Assembly (NCBI GenBank): GCA_036785375.1
Contig: JAWMAR010000731.1
Location: forward strand, 1-64,000
Direction of reading: 5' to 3'
DNA from: Leucoraja ocellata
Lineage: Eukaryota
Length of the DNA: 64,000 nt
Shown here piece after piece: positions 6,119-48,424 of the stretch; positions within the stretch are counted from its first letter, which is position 1; each line of letters begins with the position of its first letter. The position numbers and the translations under genes were made by a program. The notes under the pieces were generated by a model, which had not been told where the DNA came from, ran no database searches, and saw nothing but the letters and a program-made list of their open reading frames with translations.

Positions 6119-6500
6119 AACATTGAAAGGTGACATTTCGGGTCGACACCCTTTTTCAGACAGGGTCAGGGGAAGGAGAGAGATATAGAAGGGTAAGGTG
6201 TGAAAATCAGACATCAACGGGGTTGCTTTTTCTATTTTCTTTCTGTTGGCCATTCATCATCATTTCATGCCTGGGTTTGGAGCACTCTGCAGCTTTAGAT
6301 AACCACATGCCCTTTCAATCGTTCTGACATGCGGGACTCCTGACCACCGCAAACAAGTGGATGAGATAGACCCTTGAATTTGCAGAGAACCTGAGATCCA
6401 TCTGAGATCCATCCTGAGATGTATTGAGAAATTTCAATGAGTTCTCTGATCCCCTGATTGTGAAGAAAGCAGCAATGATAGTCAACTGTTTCGTTCTTAG

Positions 6501-6805
6501 GACCACCGTAAATTGGAGGAGCAGCACTTCATATTTCGCTTGGGCAGTTTGCACCCCAGCGGTATGAACATTGACTTCTCTAATTTCAAGTAGTCCCTAC
6601 TTTCTCCTCCCCTTCTCAGCTCTCCCTCAGCCCACTGGCTCCACCTCTTCCTTTCTTCTTCTTCACCCTCACATCAGTCTGAAGAAGGGTTTCGACCCGA
6701 AACGTTGCCTATTTCTGTCGCTCCATGGATTCTGCCTCACCTACTGAGTTTCCCCTGCATTTTTGTCTAACTTTGAATTTCCAGCATCTGCAGTTCCTTC
6801 TTAAA
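6501..6805 (+). mobile_element. Penelope-like element 3' end: GIY-YIG C-terminus plus terminal repeat
   Basis: 6501-6593 reads DHRKLEEQHFIFRLGSLHPSGMNIDFSNFK*, followed by a pyrimidine tract and the hammerhead-bearing repeat. Confidence 0.8.
6675..6710 (+). ncRNA. Minimal type I hammerhead ribozyme-like motif
   Basis: CAGT-CTGAAGA-A-GGGT(TTCG)ACCC-GAAAC-GTT-GCCT: CUGANGA and GAAA boxes, a 4-bp stem II and a palindromic ACGU stem III; stem I is weak. Confidence 0.6.
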
Positions 6806-7794
6806 CAAATGTTTCATTCTTAGGTGGGTTGTAGTTGGCTTGTAATGGATCTGCTACATTCCCCAGGGTCTCAAAGGAGTGGTAGCGTTTTGCCATTTGG
6901 CCAATGAAATGCAGTACAAATAAGGAAACTGCCGGAGGAATGCAGTGATCAGACAGCATCTGTGGAGGGAAATGGAAATGGGAAATTGACACATTTTGGG
7001 TCAGTACCCTTCTTCAGACTGAAACAGATGCTGCCAGACCGACTGAGTTCCTCCAGCAGTTTGGTTTTGCTCAAAATTCCAGCATCCACACTCTATTGTC
7101 TCCAAATACACATAGTGGAGTCTTTAATTTTGCCTGCTCTAGTCTATCCTGCTTACCCAGATCAATACTCTGAGTAGTTTACTGTCCACAGTCTCCTTTC
7201 ATAAGACAAGTTACTCTCCTGGAACTATAGCAACCCGGCAAAATAACAGCGTTCACTCTTCCAGCGGATAGCCTTGTGCTATCTTTATCACCAAGCATCT
7301 TTTCTAACAGAGAAACATAAAATAATAGAAGCAGAAGTGAGCCATTCATTGTGATCATGGCTGATCCTCCACCTCAACAACCAATTAACCATTCCAATAA
7401 ATGTCATGGGTTCAGTAAACAAAGTCACTTAAAGAGAGCCTACACCCTTTCTCTGCAGCTCATCAGTTGCAAAGAAGCAAGAGGATAGATTCTACACAGG
7501 GATAGAAACGTTCTCAAAGCTTCTCCCTGACCATGACTGCACTGGACACACAGAGCAGTTGGCTACAATGCTTAAAGAAAGACACCCCCAATTTTACATA
7601 GGGAATGTGTTACAACAGCAAACAAAACTGCTTAGAGACACAACACTCACCATGAAAATAAACAAATTATTTTCTAGATGGTGGCTATAACCGATCGGAC
7701 CCCATAAATATCAGTCGTTGTTCTCGGTTATTATGAACTAGAATAGAGCAAGTGATGCAATGCACCCAAACTCATTGGCAAGGGAAAGCTGCAT

Positions 7795-11324: not shown

Positions 11325-11420
11325 GTAGACTCAAAATGCTGGAGTAACTCAGCGGGACAGGCAGCATATCTGGAGAGAAGGAATGGGTGACCTTTCGGGT
11401 CGAGACCCTTCTTCAGACTG
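11325..11420 (-). mobile_element. Penelope-like terminal repeat with hammerhead-like core
   Basis: Reverse complement CAGTCTGAAGAAGGGTCTCGACCCGAAAGGTCACC. Confidence 0.7.
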
Positions 11421-11737
11421 ACAATCTCATCCCTTGGTTGTAGATCAATAATTCCCTATTGTACTATATATTATCCAAGTGCAGTATCTTTGAGAGGCTG
11501 TTACTTCGATGATTTTGTGCTCCATTCTGCACTATGCAATTATTATGAAAAATTGGGGTAATGCTCAGCAGGTCAGGTGGCCTCTGTGCAAAATGAAACA
11601 AAGTTCATGTTTCAAGTCTGACTTTTTAAAGTTTCAATCCAAAGTGTTGACTGCTTCTCTTCCCACAGGTTCAGCCTAACCTGCTGAGTGTCTCCAGCAT
11701 TTTCTGTTTTTATTTTATCTGCGATTGTTATCCTGAG

Positions 11738-17055: not shown

Positions 17056-17271
17056 CTGTAGAGTGTTGACTGGGAAGGATGGAATGGGTGGAAAGTCCAT
17101 GATCTGCAGGTCGTGCACATGCTCGTTCATGACCACCGCAGGCAGGTAGATGTGCCGTGCCTTTGTCGGCATGTAGCGGTCACTGTAATCGTTGTAGAGG
17201 AACTGGTGCACAATTGCTGATTTCCCAACCCCTTGCGCTCCAAGGATTGCTATTTTGAAAGTTGTCACCAT
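17056..17271 (-). CDS. RASL10B: Ras-like protein family member 10B, first coding exon (72 codons)
   Basis: [72 protein letters not shown] has P-loop GAQGVGKS and the RASL10B-type DFPP...FPVNTLQ. Strong Kozak GGCATGG; phase-0 donor CAG|GTAATT at 17055; located next to AP2B1. Confidence 0.95.
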
Positions 17272-18549: not shown

Positions 18550-19050
18550 TGAGGAAGTGCAGATGCTGGAACCTTGAGCAAATCACAAAGTGCTGGAGTA
18601 ACTTAGTGGGTCAGGTATAATCTGTGAAGGGAATGAACAGGTGATGTTTCGGGTCAGAACTTTTTACAGACTGATAGCAGTAGGGGGAAGACAGCTGGTA
18701 AAGAGAGGTGGGGGGGAGGGGTGGGGGGGAGGACAAAGTCTGGCAAGTGATAAATAGAGATAGGCACAAAATGCTGGAGTAACTCAGCGGGTCAGGCAAC
18801 ATCTCTGGAGAAAAGGAACTGGTGACGTTTCGGGTTGAAACCCTTCTTCAGATAAATGTATACAGGTGACGTGGGCTTGACTGGCAGATGGGGGGGAATT
18901 GTGACAAAGGCTAGAGATGAAAAGGAGACAAAATGGTGTTAGGCAAAGAGGAGTGAAATGTGAAGTCAGAGGGAAGGACATAGTGGAAAGGGATGGGGAG
19001 GGGATAATGGGTGCATACTGGGGTGGGGGAACACAAGAAAGGGAGAGGGA
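18550..19050 (-). mobile_element. Tandem Penelope-like terminal repeats
   Basis: Two units; the second has an intact core CTGAAGAAGGGTTTCAACCCGAAACGTC (18821-18851). Confidence 0.65.
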
Positions 19051-22504: not shown

Positions 22505-22880
22505 CACAGAACTGCAGGATAGACACAAAGAGCTGGAGTAACTCAACGGGTCAGGCAGCATCCCTGGAGAAAAAGAATGGGTGATGTTTTGGGTCGGGAC
22601 CCTTCTTCAGACTGAAAGTATAGGGGAGACAATAGACAACAGGTGCAAGAGTAGGTCATGTCTCTTTGAGCCAGCACGGCTGCTTTGAAGAGAAGAACTG
22701 CTTCGATCTGGCCTTTTCTTACCTTCAGTTCACTCCCCTGTACGTTTAATCTAAAGAAGGGTCTCAATCCAAAATGTCACCCATCCTTTCTCTTCAGAGA
22801 TGCTGCCTGACTCGCTAAGTTACTCCAGCACTTTGTGTCTATCTTAGATATATAACAGCATCTACATTTCCTTTCTACGC
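22505..22880. mobile_element. Inverted pair of Penelope-like terminal repeats
   Basis: 22520-22614 (-) and 22750-22845 (+) are reverse complements of each other. Confidence 0.65.
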
Positions 22881-23687
22881 AGAACTGCAGGAGGGCAGCA
22901 TGTGAAATGATATCTGTTGTCATATGGAGATTGACTCCACAGCATCTAATCCAGGTAAACGGAAATGAAAGGTGGGCAGGCAACAATGAGTCTGGCCACA
23001 TTTAATGAGGTGATGGCATGGGAGAGGTATGGCCATAAGGTGGGCCAAGCAGAAGAGTTCGTAGGATGGCAAGAGAGAGAGAGAGAGTAAAGTGAATCAG
23101 GGAAAGCAGGCGGTTGATGCAAATAACATTTATTGTTACAAATGAGACCCGGTTAAATATAAAGGCTCTGAAAGGAAGTAAAAAATGAGATAACAAGCGT
23201 GAAGCCAGCAAATGAGAATAGACATTCAGCTATCGTGAGTCAAATGGTTGATCAGCCTGACTCAGTTATGTGACGAGTTGAACAGGAGGTGATGAGAGTT
23301 TGTGGCATTGTCATGATTATGGATGTGCAATAGAGGCAGATTAACAACATAGAATTCCATGGAATAAAATTGTCAGCGGCAAAATAGATTCTAAATTGGC
23401 TTAGATTCAGAAAGCAGAGAGTAGATGTGTAACTAAGGTCCATGCAAGTGCCTCGGGCTATATCATTGATTAGCAGGAAGTGAGAGATGTCAAAAGAGAA
23501 GTTGTTCAGGGTAAGAAGAAGTAGAGCCAGGTACATGAGCGTTCTTGAAAAGCAAGGACATTTCAGATGTCCAGAAACACCTTTTGTAGCGACCTCATCA
23601 TCTACAACTCCCTGATCTGCCCATCTCTCCCCAATCATCCCTCCCTACAACTGTCCTCTGCAAACACAGGATGTGGAACACTTCGTA

Positions 23688-40869: not shown

Positions 40870-40968
40870 CTCAGTCTGAAGAAGGGTTTTGGCCCGAAAC
40901 ATCGCCTATTTCCTTCGTTCCATAGATGCTGCTGCACCCGCTGAGTTTCTCCAGCATTTTTGTCTACC
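40870..40968 (+). mobile_element. Penelope-like terminal repeat with hammerhead-like core
   Basis: CAGTCTGAAGAAGGGTTTTGGCCCGAAACATCGCC. Confidence 0.7.
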
Positions 40969-41983
40969 CTCTCACTCTCATTGTTTATTCAGGGACGCAC
41001 CAAGTCTATGGCTAGGTGAGGTACACAGTAATTGTATAATATTAATTCACCCTCTGAACTCTATTCACATTTTGGCATTTTGAGAGTGTGGGCTGGCTCA
41101 TATCTATGCGAACACCTGCCATGAATCAGTAATATGTGACATGTTTTTTGTGAATGGCACTGTCATTTTAACAGGTGCTGCTTATGAAGTGGAAATGACT
41201 GAATAAAATTCTGCATCACTCCATTATTTTTGGCTGAGCAAGCTGTGTAACTGAATTTCTAATCTCTTTGCCCGACTATTACCTTTTGTTTCCATCTAAC
41301 CAAATGATCTGCACAGTTCAGTTATTTGCAAAAAGCTCCCTGGGCCCTGCTCGAAAATCCCTTCTCATTTCCATTATGGTCATGATGATGCTCTTATACA
41401 TCAGTTGCTGTTATCCATTATTTTATGTACTGTTTCTCTATGCTGTGTGATGACGAGCATTTAGAGAATATTTACCTTGCTGTACATTACAATTCAAAAA
41501 AAGAAGTAACAAGTCATTAACATTTCATTTGGGACAAGATGAAATCCAAAGATGCTGCTACTTCTTGCTGTTGCTAAATAGAAATCAAAACTGAATCTGG
41601 AGTTACTTAATCTCTGTCCAGTCTAAACCTGGTACCTCATATCTTCACAACCTTCGACTTAAGCCAATGCAATCATAAACTGTTGTTTGTAAAGCAGTTC
41701 ATTTTCTGGTGCAAGTGTTATTTTTTTGGGATAGAGACTAACTGGTAGATCCTAGCAAAATCATTTCATAATATTATGATTACTTACATAATGGAAATAT
41801 ATCAAATCAAGTGAATTACAGACTTGTCAACCAACAGCTTACACCAGTAGTCGGAAAGAGAGAAAGTTCACTGTTACCATTTCACGTAATATTTCGAGTT
41901 GTAAGACATGTTAAAAAAATGTTAGTGTGGATTTCTTCATGAGACCAAACAATGAATTCCTTGAAGATTAAACATAAAGAGTG

Positions 41984-42121
41984 GTAGACAAAAATGCTGG
42001 AGAATCTGTCTATGGAGCGAAGGAATAGGTGACGTTTTGGGTCGCGACCCTTCTTCAATCTGAAGTTTCTGCAGCATTTTTGTCTACCTTCGATTTTTCC
42101 AGCATCTGCAGTTCTCTCTTG
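41984..42121. mobile_element. Fold-back mini-Penelope insertion with 13-bp flanking direct repeat
   Basis: GTAGACAAAAATGCTG...CAGCATTTTTGTCTAC; AACATAAAGAGTG at 41971-83 and 42122-34. Confidence 0.7.
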
Positions 42122-43711
42122 AACATAAAGAGTGAATGTGGCCAATGGAAGCTTGAATGGATTCTCAGTGGGCTTGTGATAGAGTGCTGCATCTAAACCT
42201 CAAGCAAAGGTTAGACATCTGCGGTTAGAAGTCAAGGCACCAGAATGGATTGAAAATATTAAAGAATATTTCAACTACTGCCATGAAGTGTGAGTAGTTT
42301 CCGTAGTTAATATGTTTTTCACAAAATATAAAAATGGTTTGGGTCAGAAATTGGAAGTATGATGTTGAAGCTTGCTGATCATACCAATGCAGAATGGGTG
42401 TATGGATAATAAAGTGACAGATTGTGTCAATGCAGGAGAAGACATGAACAAGTTTATCGAGTGTGGGAAAGTTAGGAAGTGATATTCAAAAAAGTGAATA
42501 TCATTTCTGTAGGAGAAATAAGGAATTCCACCTATTCCTTGGAAGAAAAAGGGGATAACAAAATAAAGAGTCTGGAAATCCGGCAACTCAAGGAGATTAG
42601 CCCATAAAGAAAGGAAATACTTGGAAAGAATTTCCTTACAAGAACTGTACATAAGTAGGCTAGTACCATGAGCATTGTTAACCATGTTGCTTAAACTCCA
42701 TTTTGAGTACTTTTTACAACCACTGGAGAAAATACAAAAAGGATATACAAAGACTTAACCACAAGTTGGAGAATGAAATTATCAGGAAAGATTGAGCAGC
42801 GGCAATTTTTCCACTGGAATGATTAGATATGAGGAGAACTTCGAAAGGAGTTTGGCAAGTTGAATCCTAAGAAAGGAGGCATAATTAAAACCATCTTGCT
42901 ACTTGTTTTTTTTAATTCATTCTCTACAAAATTAACAATCCACATGAATTGTCAATACATTTTGTAGTTAGTTTGGTTGTTTGTTTGTTTGTCTTTTTGC
43001 ACAAAGTCCACGGGCATTGCCACTTTTCATTTCACTGCACATCTCGTATGTGTATGTGACGAATAAACTTGACTTGACTTGATTTTGATTTGTAACCATT
43101 TCTGTGAATCACTTGAGTTGGCCTCTTTGGTATGAAATAGACATTGAGAAATACGTTGCAGATTGGATTAGTTGATTATCCATGTCATTCCTGACTATTT
43201 CAGGTAACATTTACGACCGAGACTACGAAGAGAATCGTGAAAGTAATTTGTAGCCCAGCAACAGCAGATGTTCGGCCAATATTGTCATTACTGAGATACA
43301 ACTGAGAATGAATTAATAGTCAAAGTCGGAAAATACAATGTAAATGTTAACATCGCTTGAGTTGAATTGTAGCTCATCTTTCGCACATGGCCCATAAATT
43401 TCCAGTTTTAGAATGCAATTTCATTCTCGAGTGTCGAATTATTTTTGTATGCTGTAATCTAATCAAGGAACTCATCTGACAAGAAACCTTATAAAACCAC
43501 CCAGATCCTGAGACAATTCTTTTTTTCTATCGTCTTAACAATACAAGCTTGAATATATTTACTATTTTATGTTTATTGCCACTTTTTACTGTTACCTAGA
43601 GAGCTAAAATGAATCAGAAGCTGTTGAGACTGATGTTCCACCTCATAGTTCCACTGCTACTGTTTATGATGGATAACAAGCACTGCATCTTCATTGGTAA
43701 CTGATGAGTTT

Positions 43712-45792: not shown

Positions 45793-46232
45793 TGTTTAAG
45801 AGGGAACTGCAGATGCTGGAGAATCGAAGGTTACACAGAAAAGCTGGAGAAACTCAGCGGGTGCAGCAGCATCTATGGAGCGAAGGAAATAGGCAACGTT
45901 TCGGGCCGAAACCCTTCTTCAGACTGATCGGGGGTGGGGGTGGGTGGGGACAAGAAAGGGAAAAGGAGGAGTAGCCAGAAGGCTGGAGGGTGGGAGGAGA
46001 CAGCAGGGGAGCTGAGGAAGGGGAGGAGACAGCAAGGACTAACAGAATTGGGAGAATTCGATGTTCATGCCCCGGGGGTGTAGACTCCCCAAACGGAATA
46101 TGAGGTGCTGTTCCTCCAATTTCCGGTGCTGCTCGCTGTGGCCATGGAGGAGACCCAGGACAGAGAGGTCGGAGGCGGAGTGGGAGGGGGAGTTGAAGTG
46201 CTGAACCACCAGGAGGTCAGCTTGGTTATTGC
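45793..46232 (-). mobile_element. Young Penelope-like 3' fragment with 12-bp TSD
   Basis: Open frame NNQADLLVVQHFNSPSHSASDLSVLGLLHGHSEQHRKLEEQHLIFRLGSLHPRGMNIEFSQFC* (stop at 46039-41); TSD GGGTATGGAGAG at 45781-92 and 46233-44. Confidence 0.85.
45891..45926 (-). ncRNA. Minimal hammerhead ribozyme-like motif
   Basis: CAGT-CTGAAGA-A-GGGT(TTCG)GCCC-GAAAC-GTT-GCCT. Confidence 0.6.
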
Positions 46233-48424
46233 GGGTATGGAGAGAAGGCAGGGATGGGATACCGAGTTGGATGATCAGCCATGATCATATCGAATTGCGG
46301 TGCAGGCTCGAAGGGCGTAATGGCCTACTCCTGCACCTATTTTCTATGTTTCAATGATAGTGTTAATGGGCGGGGATCGCTGGTTGGCGCGGACCAGGTG
46401 GGCCGAAGGGCTGGTTTCCGCGCTATATCTCTAAACTAAATAAACTGTTCTGCACTCTCAGTAAAGCTTTATTGATACAAGAACTTGGAAGAATAGTGAT
46501 CGCAGGCATATAGTAATGTGTAAAAAAACAGATTAATGGAGGGACTCATTAGGTCGGGCAGCATCTGCAGAGAGAAATGGACAGACAACATTTTGGGTTG
46601 GGACCCCCACATTTCCTCCACAGGTGCTGCATGACCCGTTGAGTTCCTCCGCAGTTTCTTTTGCTCAACATTCCTGCATCTTCAGTCTTTCGTCTCTCCA
46701 TTTTACTATGAAATATACTTAGTGTGCTCACCTCATTTCTCTCCAGATGTTGCCTGACCCGCTGACTTCATTCATCAGTCTGTTTTTGTTTTCCGCAAGA
46801 CTCCAGCACCTAGTCTCTATGAAGTAATACGTCCCTATTTATAAAGCCCAGTATCTTGTATGCTTTTTCAATTACATTACACCCATTTTACTAAGCCACT
46901 TGCAATGTTCTATGCATGCATATCTGCATCTTGCTGTCCCTATCCACCTCTTCAAATTGAGTGGTTTAGCAAGTTTCATTTCATTATTTTTACCAACAGT
47001 GCATTACATCTGCGTCACCTGCCATTTAGTTTACCAAGGTTGTCTCTGTTTCTTGAAGTGTATTGCACTTTTCAGCTTTGATGTCTTTGGGAGTAGAAAT
47101 TGTGCCCTGTACACCTGTCAAATTAAGACATCGCAAAGACCCCCATGTACAGTACAGCACAGTACACCTGCCTGTACTATGGAACTTTAAGCATATCCAG
47201 TGACTTGGCCTCAACAGCCATCTGTGGCAATGAATTCTCCAGATTCACCATCCTCTGAGTAAAGAAACTCCTCCTCATCTCCTTCCTAAAGGAACGTCCT
47301 TTAATTCCGAGGCTTATGTTACTGTCCCATTAAACAACTTCAGCGATATCATGTAGAATGTTCAGTAGCTGATAAATGAGCAGGGTATTGAGAGGAAATG
47401 TCCTTTTCATTTTCCACTCTTCCAATGAATTGTGTTGCCGGATGCTCCGGCAGAAGAAAACCTATTCCAATTACAGGAGTATTTGAAAATGGTGATCCTA
47501 CTGCAGATTCCATGGGAGCATTATGACTTCACTGGTTGACATGCGGGCAGCCAAAGTTACATGCTGTGTGCTTATGCCATGCCCCTACCTTCCGATGAGA
47601 AAGGCAGGTTTCAGCAGTAACTACCAGCTGACGGTTTGGACAATTGTTGTAGTCAACTTCCTGACAGTAGAGTTGGGAACTGTAAGAAATAAGTGGGTTT
47701 ACTGATGCAGTAAAAGCGGGAAGGTGGAGAGAGGGAAAAGGAATGCCGGGAATTAACAATAAAGGGTGATGCTGCAAGGCAAAGGCAGTGGCGATGGGAC
47801 AAGCGAGGAAACAGAAGACTAGAAACTCGGAACTGCAGACGATGGAATCTTGAGCAAACCACAAAGTGCTGGAGCAGCATCTGCAGAGGAAATGGAGAGG
47901 CGACGCTTCGGGTCGGGATCCTTCTCCACACAAGGTCAGGTTGAAGGTAAAAATGGAAGAAGCAGAATCATTGAGTTCATAAATGTTGCAGATGCTGCAA
48001 AACTGAAATAACAAGCAGTCGCAGCATCTACACTGAGCACAGAAGGCACATGTTCTTGACATTTTAACTATTTCTCGTTCCACACGTCTTCAAACATGTT
48101 GCGTATTTTCACCATTTTATATTTTTAATTCATATTTACAGCATCTGGGTATTTTGCTGTATATTTCCTAAATTCTCCCAATTCAGGAACTGTTCTCAAT
48201 AATTGGTAGATTGCATGGCTCTTTTATTATTTAAGACAGGTGGAAGCAAGGAATTGTACGTCATTTAGCTCAACATCTATTGTCTAGAAATCAATAGGTA
48301 CTATATTTAAGGATAGTGTAGGAGTAGGTCATAAGCAGCCAGCACAAATTGGTAAAGAGTAGGTTTTTCACTGAAGAACTTTAAGCCTTCCTCATTATTG
48401 GAACATTGGATAGTCATAGAGAGA

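Follow-up and report, generated by a model that had tools for sequence, protein, structure and literature searches.

Short copies of a hammerhead-bearing repeat in the Leucoraja ocellata genome as likely insertion products of Neptune-type Penelope-like elements

A 64,000-nt stretch of the Leucoraja ocellata genome (assembly GCA_036785375.1, contig JAWMAR010000731.1, positions 1 to 64,000; hereafter "the window") holds many short copies of a repeat with a hammerhead ribozyme motif. Are these copies a family in their own right, SINE-like or retrozyme-like as an earlier note on this DNA had proposed, or are they pieces of a larger element, and does the hammerhead make them? Judged by its sequence, the motif belongs to the minimal type I hammerheads and sits in the terminal repeat of Penelope-like elements (PLEs) of the Neptune type, a known class. 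What is newly added here is a spike of copy starts at position -2, a pairing of short with long arms in head-to-head insertions, and junctions of ORF-start sequence at the hammerhead front edge.

Hammerhead-bearing copies in the window

A 5′-truncated PLE copy occupies 6502-6809 (+). It is 75% identical over 336 nt to a copy at 45.8-46.2 kb and has a target duplication on both sides (15 bp each, 6487-6501 (+) and 6810-6824 (+), 14/15 identical). The copy contains about 30 last GIY-YIG codons, a pyrimidine-rich 3′ UTR, the hammerhead and the leader up to the long (tail) end. Its C-terminal codons and stop of the RT/GIY-YIG frame (6502-6593 (+)) share 86% identity with the C-terminus of P0001; this piece of frame alone had no Pfam match. 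The young copy at 45793-46232 (-), also 5′ truncated, has 63 GIY-YIG codons, an intact hammerhead (core 45922), the long end and a 12-bp target duplication, and is 98-99.5% identical to the ends of long-ORF elements. The frames stopping at 6593 (+) and 46039 (-) are the final 30 and 63 residues of the PLE GIY-YIG protein, and the hammerhead core follows their stop codons at 86 and 117 nt, respectively, so that the repeat does lie just 3′ of a GIY-YIG stop codon twice, as had been noted earlier. The 45.8-46.2 kb copy was inserted into one member of a second dispersed repeat, which occurs in the window at about 7341, 7838, 10925, 17986, 30650, 32354, 46230-46300 and 49346.

The minimal type I hammerhead at 6677-6708 (+) has the layout described in the text of PMC4209133. 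It consists of CUGAAGA (6679-6685), an extra A (6686), a stem II of 4 bp with a loop of 4 nt (6687-6698), GAAA (6699-6702) and an ACGU palindrome without loop 3 (6702-6705). The predicted cut falls between 6706 and 6707, after GUU in this copy and after GUC in other subfamilies. Stem I, previously given as 2-3 bp, has 2 bp (6677-6678 with 6707-6708; U-G or U-A, then G-C). The front edge of the hammerhead is TCAGTCT (6674-6680 (+)), where the starts of short copies fall. This heptamer also closes a polypyrimidine-CAG acceptor-like tract, and it matches an initiator consensus. The 3′ ends of 101 copies place the tail (6770-6809 (+)) between two end sites, near +92 and +130 counted from C3. An Rfam scan of the window gave no hammerhead match at E<=1 to this motif without helix III. 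The lowest-energy predicted folds of monomer and dimer differ from the active fold, and activity is doubtful, as the earlier note held. Dimeric PLE hammerheads were reportedly the subject of a 2017 RNA Biology paper. In the young subfamily (e.g., 45880-45922 (-)), the core GAAGG can pair with CCUUC 10-15 nt past the cut site in an inactive predicted minimum, a pairing that is absent from some subfamilies.

We defined a core as intact when it had the core, three stem II pairs, ACGT and H. There are three such cores in the window, at 6679 (+), 18851 (-) and 45922 (-), the same as those first reported at 6679 (+), 18821-51 (-) and 45891-926 (-). The two cores described as near-intact (11385-420 (-) and 40876 (+)) each have one helix III base changed, C15.2 in the core at 11416 (-) and G16.2 in that at 40876 (+). 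A search with a profile made from the repeat found 29 pieces in the window, which include every decayed site listed in the earlier note and about ten more. The core pattern and profile together delimit a short copy with an intact core of a second subfamily and a GUC cut site (18759-18853 (-)), a short copy with a broken helix III palindrome (11327-11421 (-)) and a short copy in which G16.2 was lost through CpG decay (40871-40971 (+)). The profile also revealed head-to-head copy pairs at 6926-7092 (an old pair, arms 7022-6926 (-) and 7024-7092 (+)), 22510-22881 (arms 22615-22510 (-) and 22745-22881 (+)) and 41979-42126 (arms 42063-41979 (-) and 42064-42126 (+)).

We identified coding exon 1 of a RASL10-like small GTPase gene at 17056-17271 (-) (Pfam Ras, E=8e-9); the readable part of the window yielded none of the later exons. 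The gene had been named RASL10B, with sense copies of the repeat in its introns. The exon agrees with a RASL10-like gene of type A or B, and the sense orientation holds only for minus-strand copies below 17056, in the presumed first intron; the copy at 6502-6809 (+) is antisense.

Abundance, conservation and decay

A 27-nt core pattern matches the 3.44 Gb genome exactly at 86,501 places, and its reversed control at none. Thus, the motif is not a matter of chance, and the very high copy number anticipated for it is real. The profile gave 240 pieces in 600 kb of partly selected loci; from this density and the 29 pieces per 64 kb, we extrapolate to a repeat total of the order of a million pieces in the genome. 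A large inverted duplication (G000:C1, about 0.2-1.0 Mb versus 2.1-2.9 Mb) repeats the copies together with their flanks (e.g., L032/L060, L033/L058). Local duplications of this sort occur on other contigs too and may be uncollapsed haplotypes, and genome counts are somewhat inflated. At locus L091:1900-3000, two direct copies 574 bp apart have a common downstream flank, which indicates local duplication and not a partial tandem.

For the analysis of boundaries, copies were chosen by a downstream anchor outside the hammerhead, which has 53,398 genome matches, and the first listed places were taken with their surroundings. After removal of duplicates, 101 of the 108 anchor-picked copies were retained. 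Most of these come from one young subfamily and from the opening 9.3 Mb of a single contig, with both arms of inverted pairs counted.

Across five subfamily majorities, 17/17 positions of the core and stem II are unchanged (11/11 and 6/6, respectively), compared with 41/58 downstream (p=0.008; for the core alone p=0.054). Among 86 unselected inserted copies, the core decays as do matched downstream positions (A/T 5.7% vs 5.8%; G/C 7.9% vs 8.8%), and G12, a CpG, is changed in 30/86. Intact copies make up 13/134 of the unselected copies. The excess conservation that the earlier note had set as a test is thus present, for core plus stem II, between subfamily majorities and not among inserted copies. 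As inserted cores decay at the downstream rate and the majorities are conserved, the pattern points to selection that keeps the hammerhead in source elements only, not in scattered copies. Stem changes between subfamilies retain pairing but are one-sided (U-A/U-G at 10.4-11.4 and 2.1-1.1). We rejected a compensatory A-U at 10.1-11.1, hinted at by two small old clusters of 4 and 8 copies. Its 209 genome matches reflect independent double decay, and those listed belong to G-C families.

The parent element

With the peptide that precedes the 45.9 kb copy as query, 127,426 first-look candidates were obtained, and open frames of up to 1,235 codons were found among 150 scored. Locus L081 is a partial tandem, comprising a 5′-truncated copy, the hammerhead, about 165 nt, an ATG, a frame of 1,211 aa and a 3′ repeat, and the whole insertion is enclosed by one target duplication. 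From its first Met, the 1,211-aa protein contains an RT (YIDD), a CX4CxxC linker and a GIY-YIG domain, with C-X4-CxxC before the GIY-YIG and CxxC plus two His after it. Its Pfam matches, RVT_1 (E=1e-4) and GIY-YIG (E=0.012), are both below the curated cut-offs; its neighbours in a protein atlas carry RT and GIY-YIG (score 0.98). A PDB sequence search with the element protein returned nothing meaningful. Within L081:2309-6013, 500 aa lie N-terminal to the RT and include a long Pro/Ser/Ala-rich stretch; the atlas relatives are shorter (730-830 aa). A circular monomer as the template of L081 was considered and set aside. The two repeats differ at 6/480 positions, four of them clustered, and two templates fit better in this one case.

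Inverted partners of the PLE type (inverted 5′ copies) occur at L082, L085-L087, L092, L096 and L100. The element has the features of endonuclease-bearing PLEs, namely a single RT and GIY-YIG ORF, pseudo-LTRs, partial tandems and inverted copies, and an optional 30-40 bp tail. The definition of Neptune in PMC8557442 is a CX2-5CxxC linker, common to Neptune and Nematis, with CCHH in the endonuclease. The element has both motifs and on that basis would be Neptune-type, its linker being one that Nematis also has. The repeats of these 1,211-aa RT/GIY-YIG elements carry the motif, in agreement with the PLE origin, minimal type I class and palindromic ACGU helix III proposed from the window. Four of the six subfamily clusters include GIY-YIG-linked copies, each with a different 3′ UTR, and all of those 3′ UTRs finish in a pyrimidine tract and CAGT ahead of the core. 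We found no convincing GIY-YIG link for the two oldest, small clusters.

Starts and ends of the copies

The 3′ ends of the 101 copies cluster at the two tail sites of PLEs, which are separated by about 36 nt, with 59 at +89 to +97 and 35 at +124 to +136 from C3. At the 5′ side, 15 copies are long (>=269 nt upstream), two start at -87/-82, five at -18 to -12, 69 at -8 to +12 and 10 at +14 to +44. About 80% of copies have no ORF sequence, and their lengths are near-fixed at about 95 and 132 nt.

Genome-wide, apparent starts number 1,963 at -1, 4,569 at -2, 2,656 at -3, 1,389 at -4, 1,399 at -5 and 1,309 at -6, where about 70 of 100 listed represent a long subfamily. After correction for chance matches, about 6,000 copies start at -2, 1,250-1,500 at -3 to -5 and about 100 at -6. 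The profile thus peaks sharply at G(-2) and falls away steeply at -6. No extra cap G is evident at the junction, since the base before G(-2) is G, T or C in 34, 31 and 35 of 100 copies and the base before A(-3) is G, T or A in 28, 24 and 48 of 100 (both by eye).

Copies predominantly contain the whole uncut motif and span the predicted cut site, at which 1 of the 101 copies starts exactly (3/101 at or within 2 nt). Only 1,564 matches have no GAAA ahead of the anchor. About 8 of 100 listed begin at the cut or within 2 nt of it (by eye), and starts at the cut site are no commoner in this list than at neighbouring palindrome positions.

Target duplications and head-to-head insertions

Exact target duplications of 7-17 bp flank 30 of 62 non-inverted short copies, compared with 1.1 (maximum 5) in shuffles. 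In 15 of those 30 the duplication extends 1-4 nt into the element as microhomology, 5 have flush junctions and 10 have 1-7 added bases. Because the flanks carry exact target duplications, they are target DNA and not spliced exons, and we ruled out host exons joined to the CAG acceptor as the origin of the junctions.

An inverted partner was detected on the 5′ side of 22/84 short copies. In 33 of 37 distinct head-to-head pairs a short arm is joined to a long arm, in 4 a short arm is joined to an intermediate arm, and no pair has arms alike (P=1.6e-11 under independence, using the overall 182:111 ratio of ends). The whole pair lies within a duplication in 32/37, a count that has no shuffle control. 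Six long inverted insertions follow the same pairing, and in some pairs both arms meet at -2 with no microhomology (L195; C2:4466267). Pairing of short with long arms, mostly within one target duplication, fits twin priming and not fold-back. In PLEs the tail is often at one end only, as PMC8557442 describes, and our searches of the literature on PLEs did not find the strict rule of short with long arms.

Template RNA and transcription

At 227 places in the genome, ORF-start sequence is joined directly to the hammerhead front edge. Among 28 distinct jump loci that were parsed, the upstream piece reaches +186 to +241 in 21, an upper limit partly set by the search pattern, and in 7 of those 21 it restarts at -6 to -1 (two of the seven are probably one duplicated locus). 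At L281, L304 and L310, one duplication surrounds the whole insertion. We read each such junction, from its sequence, as a single insertion during which reverse transcription would have extended to the front edge, switched onto ORF-start RNA and proceeded a second time. As solo short copies have no ORF-start sequence, the template at these loci was the leader of an ORF-bearing element. This establishes a leader-RNA template for at least some insertions, the 227 junctions standing against tens of thousands of copies. By analogy with an Anolis PLE, which needs about 55 nt of RNA beyond its start sites (PMC11167929), solo copies would be poor templates, as they stop at the RT start sites and do not include downstream RNA.

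A search of indexed sequencing runs gave no RNA run on record as a carrier of the sequence. In RNA reads of a related species the repeat is covered about 4,000-fold, compared with 5-30-fold at the ORF start, and 73-95% of mapped reads continue into unlike sequence, as passengers of host transcripts would. Three runs, from libraries not built for ends, had read starts and ends piled up neither at the front edge nor at the cut site, the latter being where the earlier note had suggested a search for 5′ RNA ends. In single-cell runs X22 and X23, one strand of L081:5500-6500 is favoured 3-4x on the repeat and also at the ORF start, a bias on which no reading here draws.

Proposed mechanism and alternatives

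The repeat is the PLE terminal repeat, and its short copies are, in our judgement, probably dead run-off products of internal priming on the uncut 5′ leader, stopping at the front edge of the RNA, a reading that we favour with some reserve. The element's protein would start cDNA synthesis within the uncut leader of the RNA that encodes it. The protein of the Anolis PLE is a predicted dimer (PMC11167929), and a dimer here could make staggered cuts about 15 bp apart in the two target strands and prime one cDNA per start site. Retention of one or both cDNAs would yield solo or head-to-head insertions. Each cDNA would run off at the physical 5′ end of the leader RNA, and template jumps, or else read-through or tandem RNAs, would account for the long copies. 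To cut, the hammerhead would require a second copy as partner and probably also the element's protein, and its own cut is not the source of the short copies. In vitro, single minimal motifs gave no cleavage and dimers gave weak cleavage (PMC4209133); the Anolis hammerhead cuts only with protein (PMC11167929).

The weakest step is the identity of the front edge, which might be a transcription start at the initiator-like TCA(+1)GT. A cDNA that usually ends one base short of a modified (methylated) cap-proximal A(-3) could then give the spike at -2. Against this step, the spike is at -2 and not at the initiator A(-3), and the one-base-short stop is an added assumption. The lack of a cap G and of piled-up read starts counts against it as well. 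Strict pairing implies an asymmetry between strands, whereas the Anolis protein in vitro had no strand difference in start site, an analogy that may count against the pairing.

A fuller joint reading, which we advance tentatively and are a little readier to doubt than to accept, is that the copies are a base-resolved fossil record in which a single protein dimer starts a cDNA on both strands, using a different RT start site for each. The uncut leader would be copied to its 5′ end at hammerhead stem I, followed by a possible jump into ORF-start RNA.

The same twin priming would also operate if the front edge were a block or a trimmed end and not a start site. Reverse transcriptase might be halted at the polypyrimidine-CAG by splicing or poly(C) factors or by a helix, or a 5′-3′ nuclease might trim the RNA to a protein-bound hammerhead. 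In keeping with this, the 2-bp stem I has G(-2) as its outer base, which also closes the acceptor-like CAG, the pyrimidine tract and CAGT are kept by all subfamilies, and a cap G is absent. In D. virilis, moreover, an intron runs up to helix I (PMC4209133), and the distance from the upstream start site to this intron is 46 nt (PMC2377424). However, 15 of the 17 copies that pass -18 run more than 250 nt further, as expected from two template classes, and the jumps depart from the front edge as from a physical end. Nor is there a splice joint to the front edge among the 15 best-supported of 102 joints, and the flanks are target DNA, not exons. We therefore regard a block or trimmed end as unlikely, though as a reading to be taken seriously.

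The proposal that the short copies are a self-propagating SINE-like or retrozyme-like family, transcribed, processed by the hammerhead and mobilised in trans, could draw on the preponderance of near-fixed, ORF-free copies with target duplications, on animal retrozymes being PLE derivatives (as described in bioRxiv 10.64898/2026.07.22.740005) and on a few haplotypes with 3-6 short and no ORF-linked copies, although the strict pattern used there dropped many copies. The evidence does not support it. The short copies match the repeats of ORF-bearing elements, with linked copies in four of six clusters, end at the PLE tail sites and have no fixed promoter head; no tRNA- or 5S-like head precedes the starts in the 101 copies or the Rfam scan of the window. 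Tandem unit arrays are absent from the loci examined. In the window and the fetched loci copies are solo or head-to-head, and direct dimers are rare jump products. Copies also cross the cut site, neither starting nor ending there, stop at RT start sites without the downstream RNA that the Anolis protein requires (PMC11167929), and decay neutrally, and the jump junctions carry ORF-start sequence. We consider such a family quite improbable.

A single cDNA might instead fold back and prime itself at the TCAG-T-CTGA or AACGTT palindromes, the hairpin tip setting the start. Self-priming has been proposed for rotifer PLEs (PMC3846280), and inverted-pair junctions here often lie on these palindromes. 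The palindromes could equally serve as microhomology joining two cDNAs, and fold-back predicts arms with equal outer ends, found in 0/37 pairs, so that it is disfavoured and has very little likelihood. Lastly, an origin of the short copies as cDNAs of hammerhead cleavage products, to which the few starts at or near the predicted cut might be ascribed, is refuted for the bulk of copies, most of which hold the entire uncut motif.

If the fossil-record reading is correct, the hammerhead front edge would be the transcription start or template boundary of the element, and the element would be by nature highly efficient at inserting RNA copies of 100-135 nt, its pieces numbering around a million on extrapolation. 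The start spike, strict pairing and jump junctions amount to quantitative predictions for PLE insertion, for whose chemistry we found one in vitro study in the literature. The results argue that the hammerhead does not process the RNA behind most insertions, a point relevant to why PLEs have retained it. That one vertebrate genome carries about 10^5 intact cores, many of them in transcribed regions, strongly hints at a monomer that is inactive unless a partner or protein is present. Both the motif and its connection with PLEs were already known (Cervera and De la Peña 2014); the value of the present record is its scale and sharpness.

Comparison with known systems

For hammerheads or Penelope elements of sharks, rays and skates we found nothing relevant in the literature, although the supplements of PMC4209133 and of a bioRxiv preprint may list some. 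We found no cartilaginous fish named in PMC4209133, and bioRxiv 10.64898/2026.07.22.740005 includes one chondrichthyan genome. The minimal PLE hammerheads described in PMC4209133 resemble ours in the CUGANGA/GAAA core, the extra base between 9 and 10.1, G10.1-C11.1, the palindromic 15.2-16.2 without loop 3, the short helix I and the occurrence mainly as single dispersed copies with few in full elements. Copy number differs, with 86,501 exact matches here against about 4,000 in coelacanth and 9,000 in Xenopus (PMC4209133). Unlike most minimal hammerheads treated there, ours has a stem II of 4 bp and a stem I of 2 bp, and in this it resembles the D. virilis variant (PMC4209133).

The Neptune clade, as described by Craig et al. 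(2021, PMC8557442), shares with our element the RT, CX2-5CxxC linker and C-terminal GIY-YIG, the partial tandems, the inverted 5′ copies and a 30-40 bp tail often at one end only. In contrast to the Neptune insertions of that account, those here are mostly 95-135 nt long with a sharp common start, their targets are not microsatellites, and the one-end tail is strict in two-armed insertions (33/37, none alike).

Animal non-LTR retrozymes (also the subject of PMC7229834), according to bioRxiv 10.64898/2026.07.22.740005, are likewise non-coding, derived from PLE repeats, equipped with a type I hammerhead and often present as monomers. Retrozymes are tandem units with a hammerhead in each, whereas the copies here are dispersed, solo or head-to-head, and bounded by RT start sites.

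The in vitro system of Anolis Poseidon, as reported by Frangieh et al. (2024, PMC11167929), likewise has two internal RT start sites that bound the tail, an uncut RNA template, cutting and extension of both strands, and no read ends at the cut site. Poseidon belongs to another clade and has its ATG inside the hammerhead and its start sites inside the ORF (PMC11167929); in the Leucoraja element the hammerhead and the RT start sites both lie in a 5′ UTR about 165 nt long.
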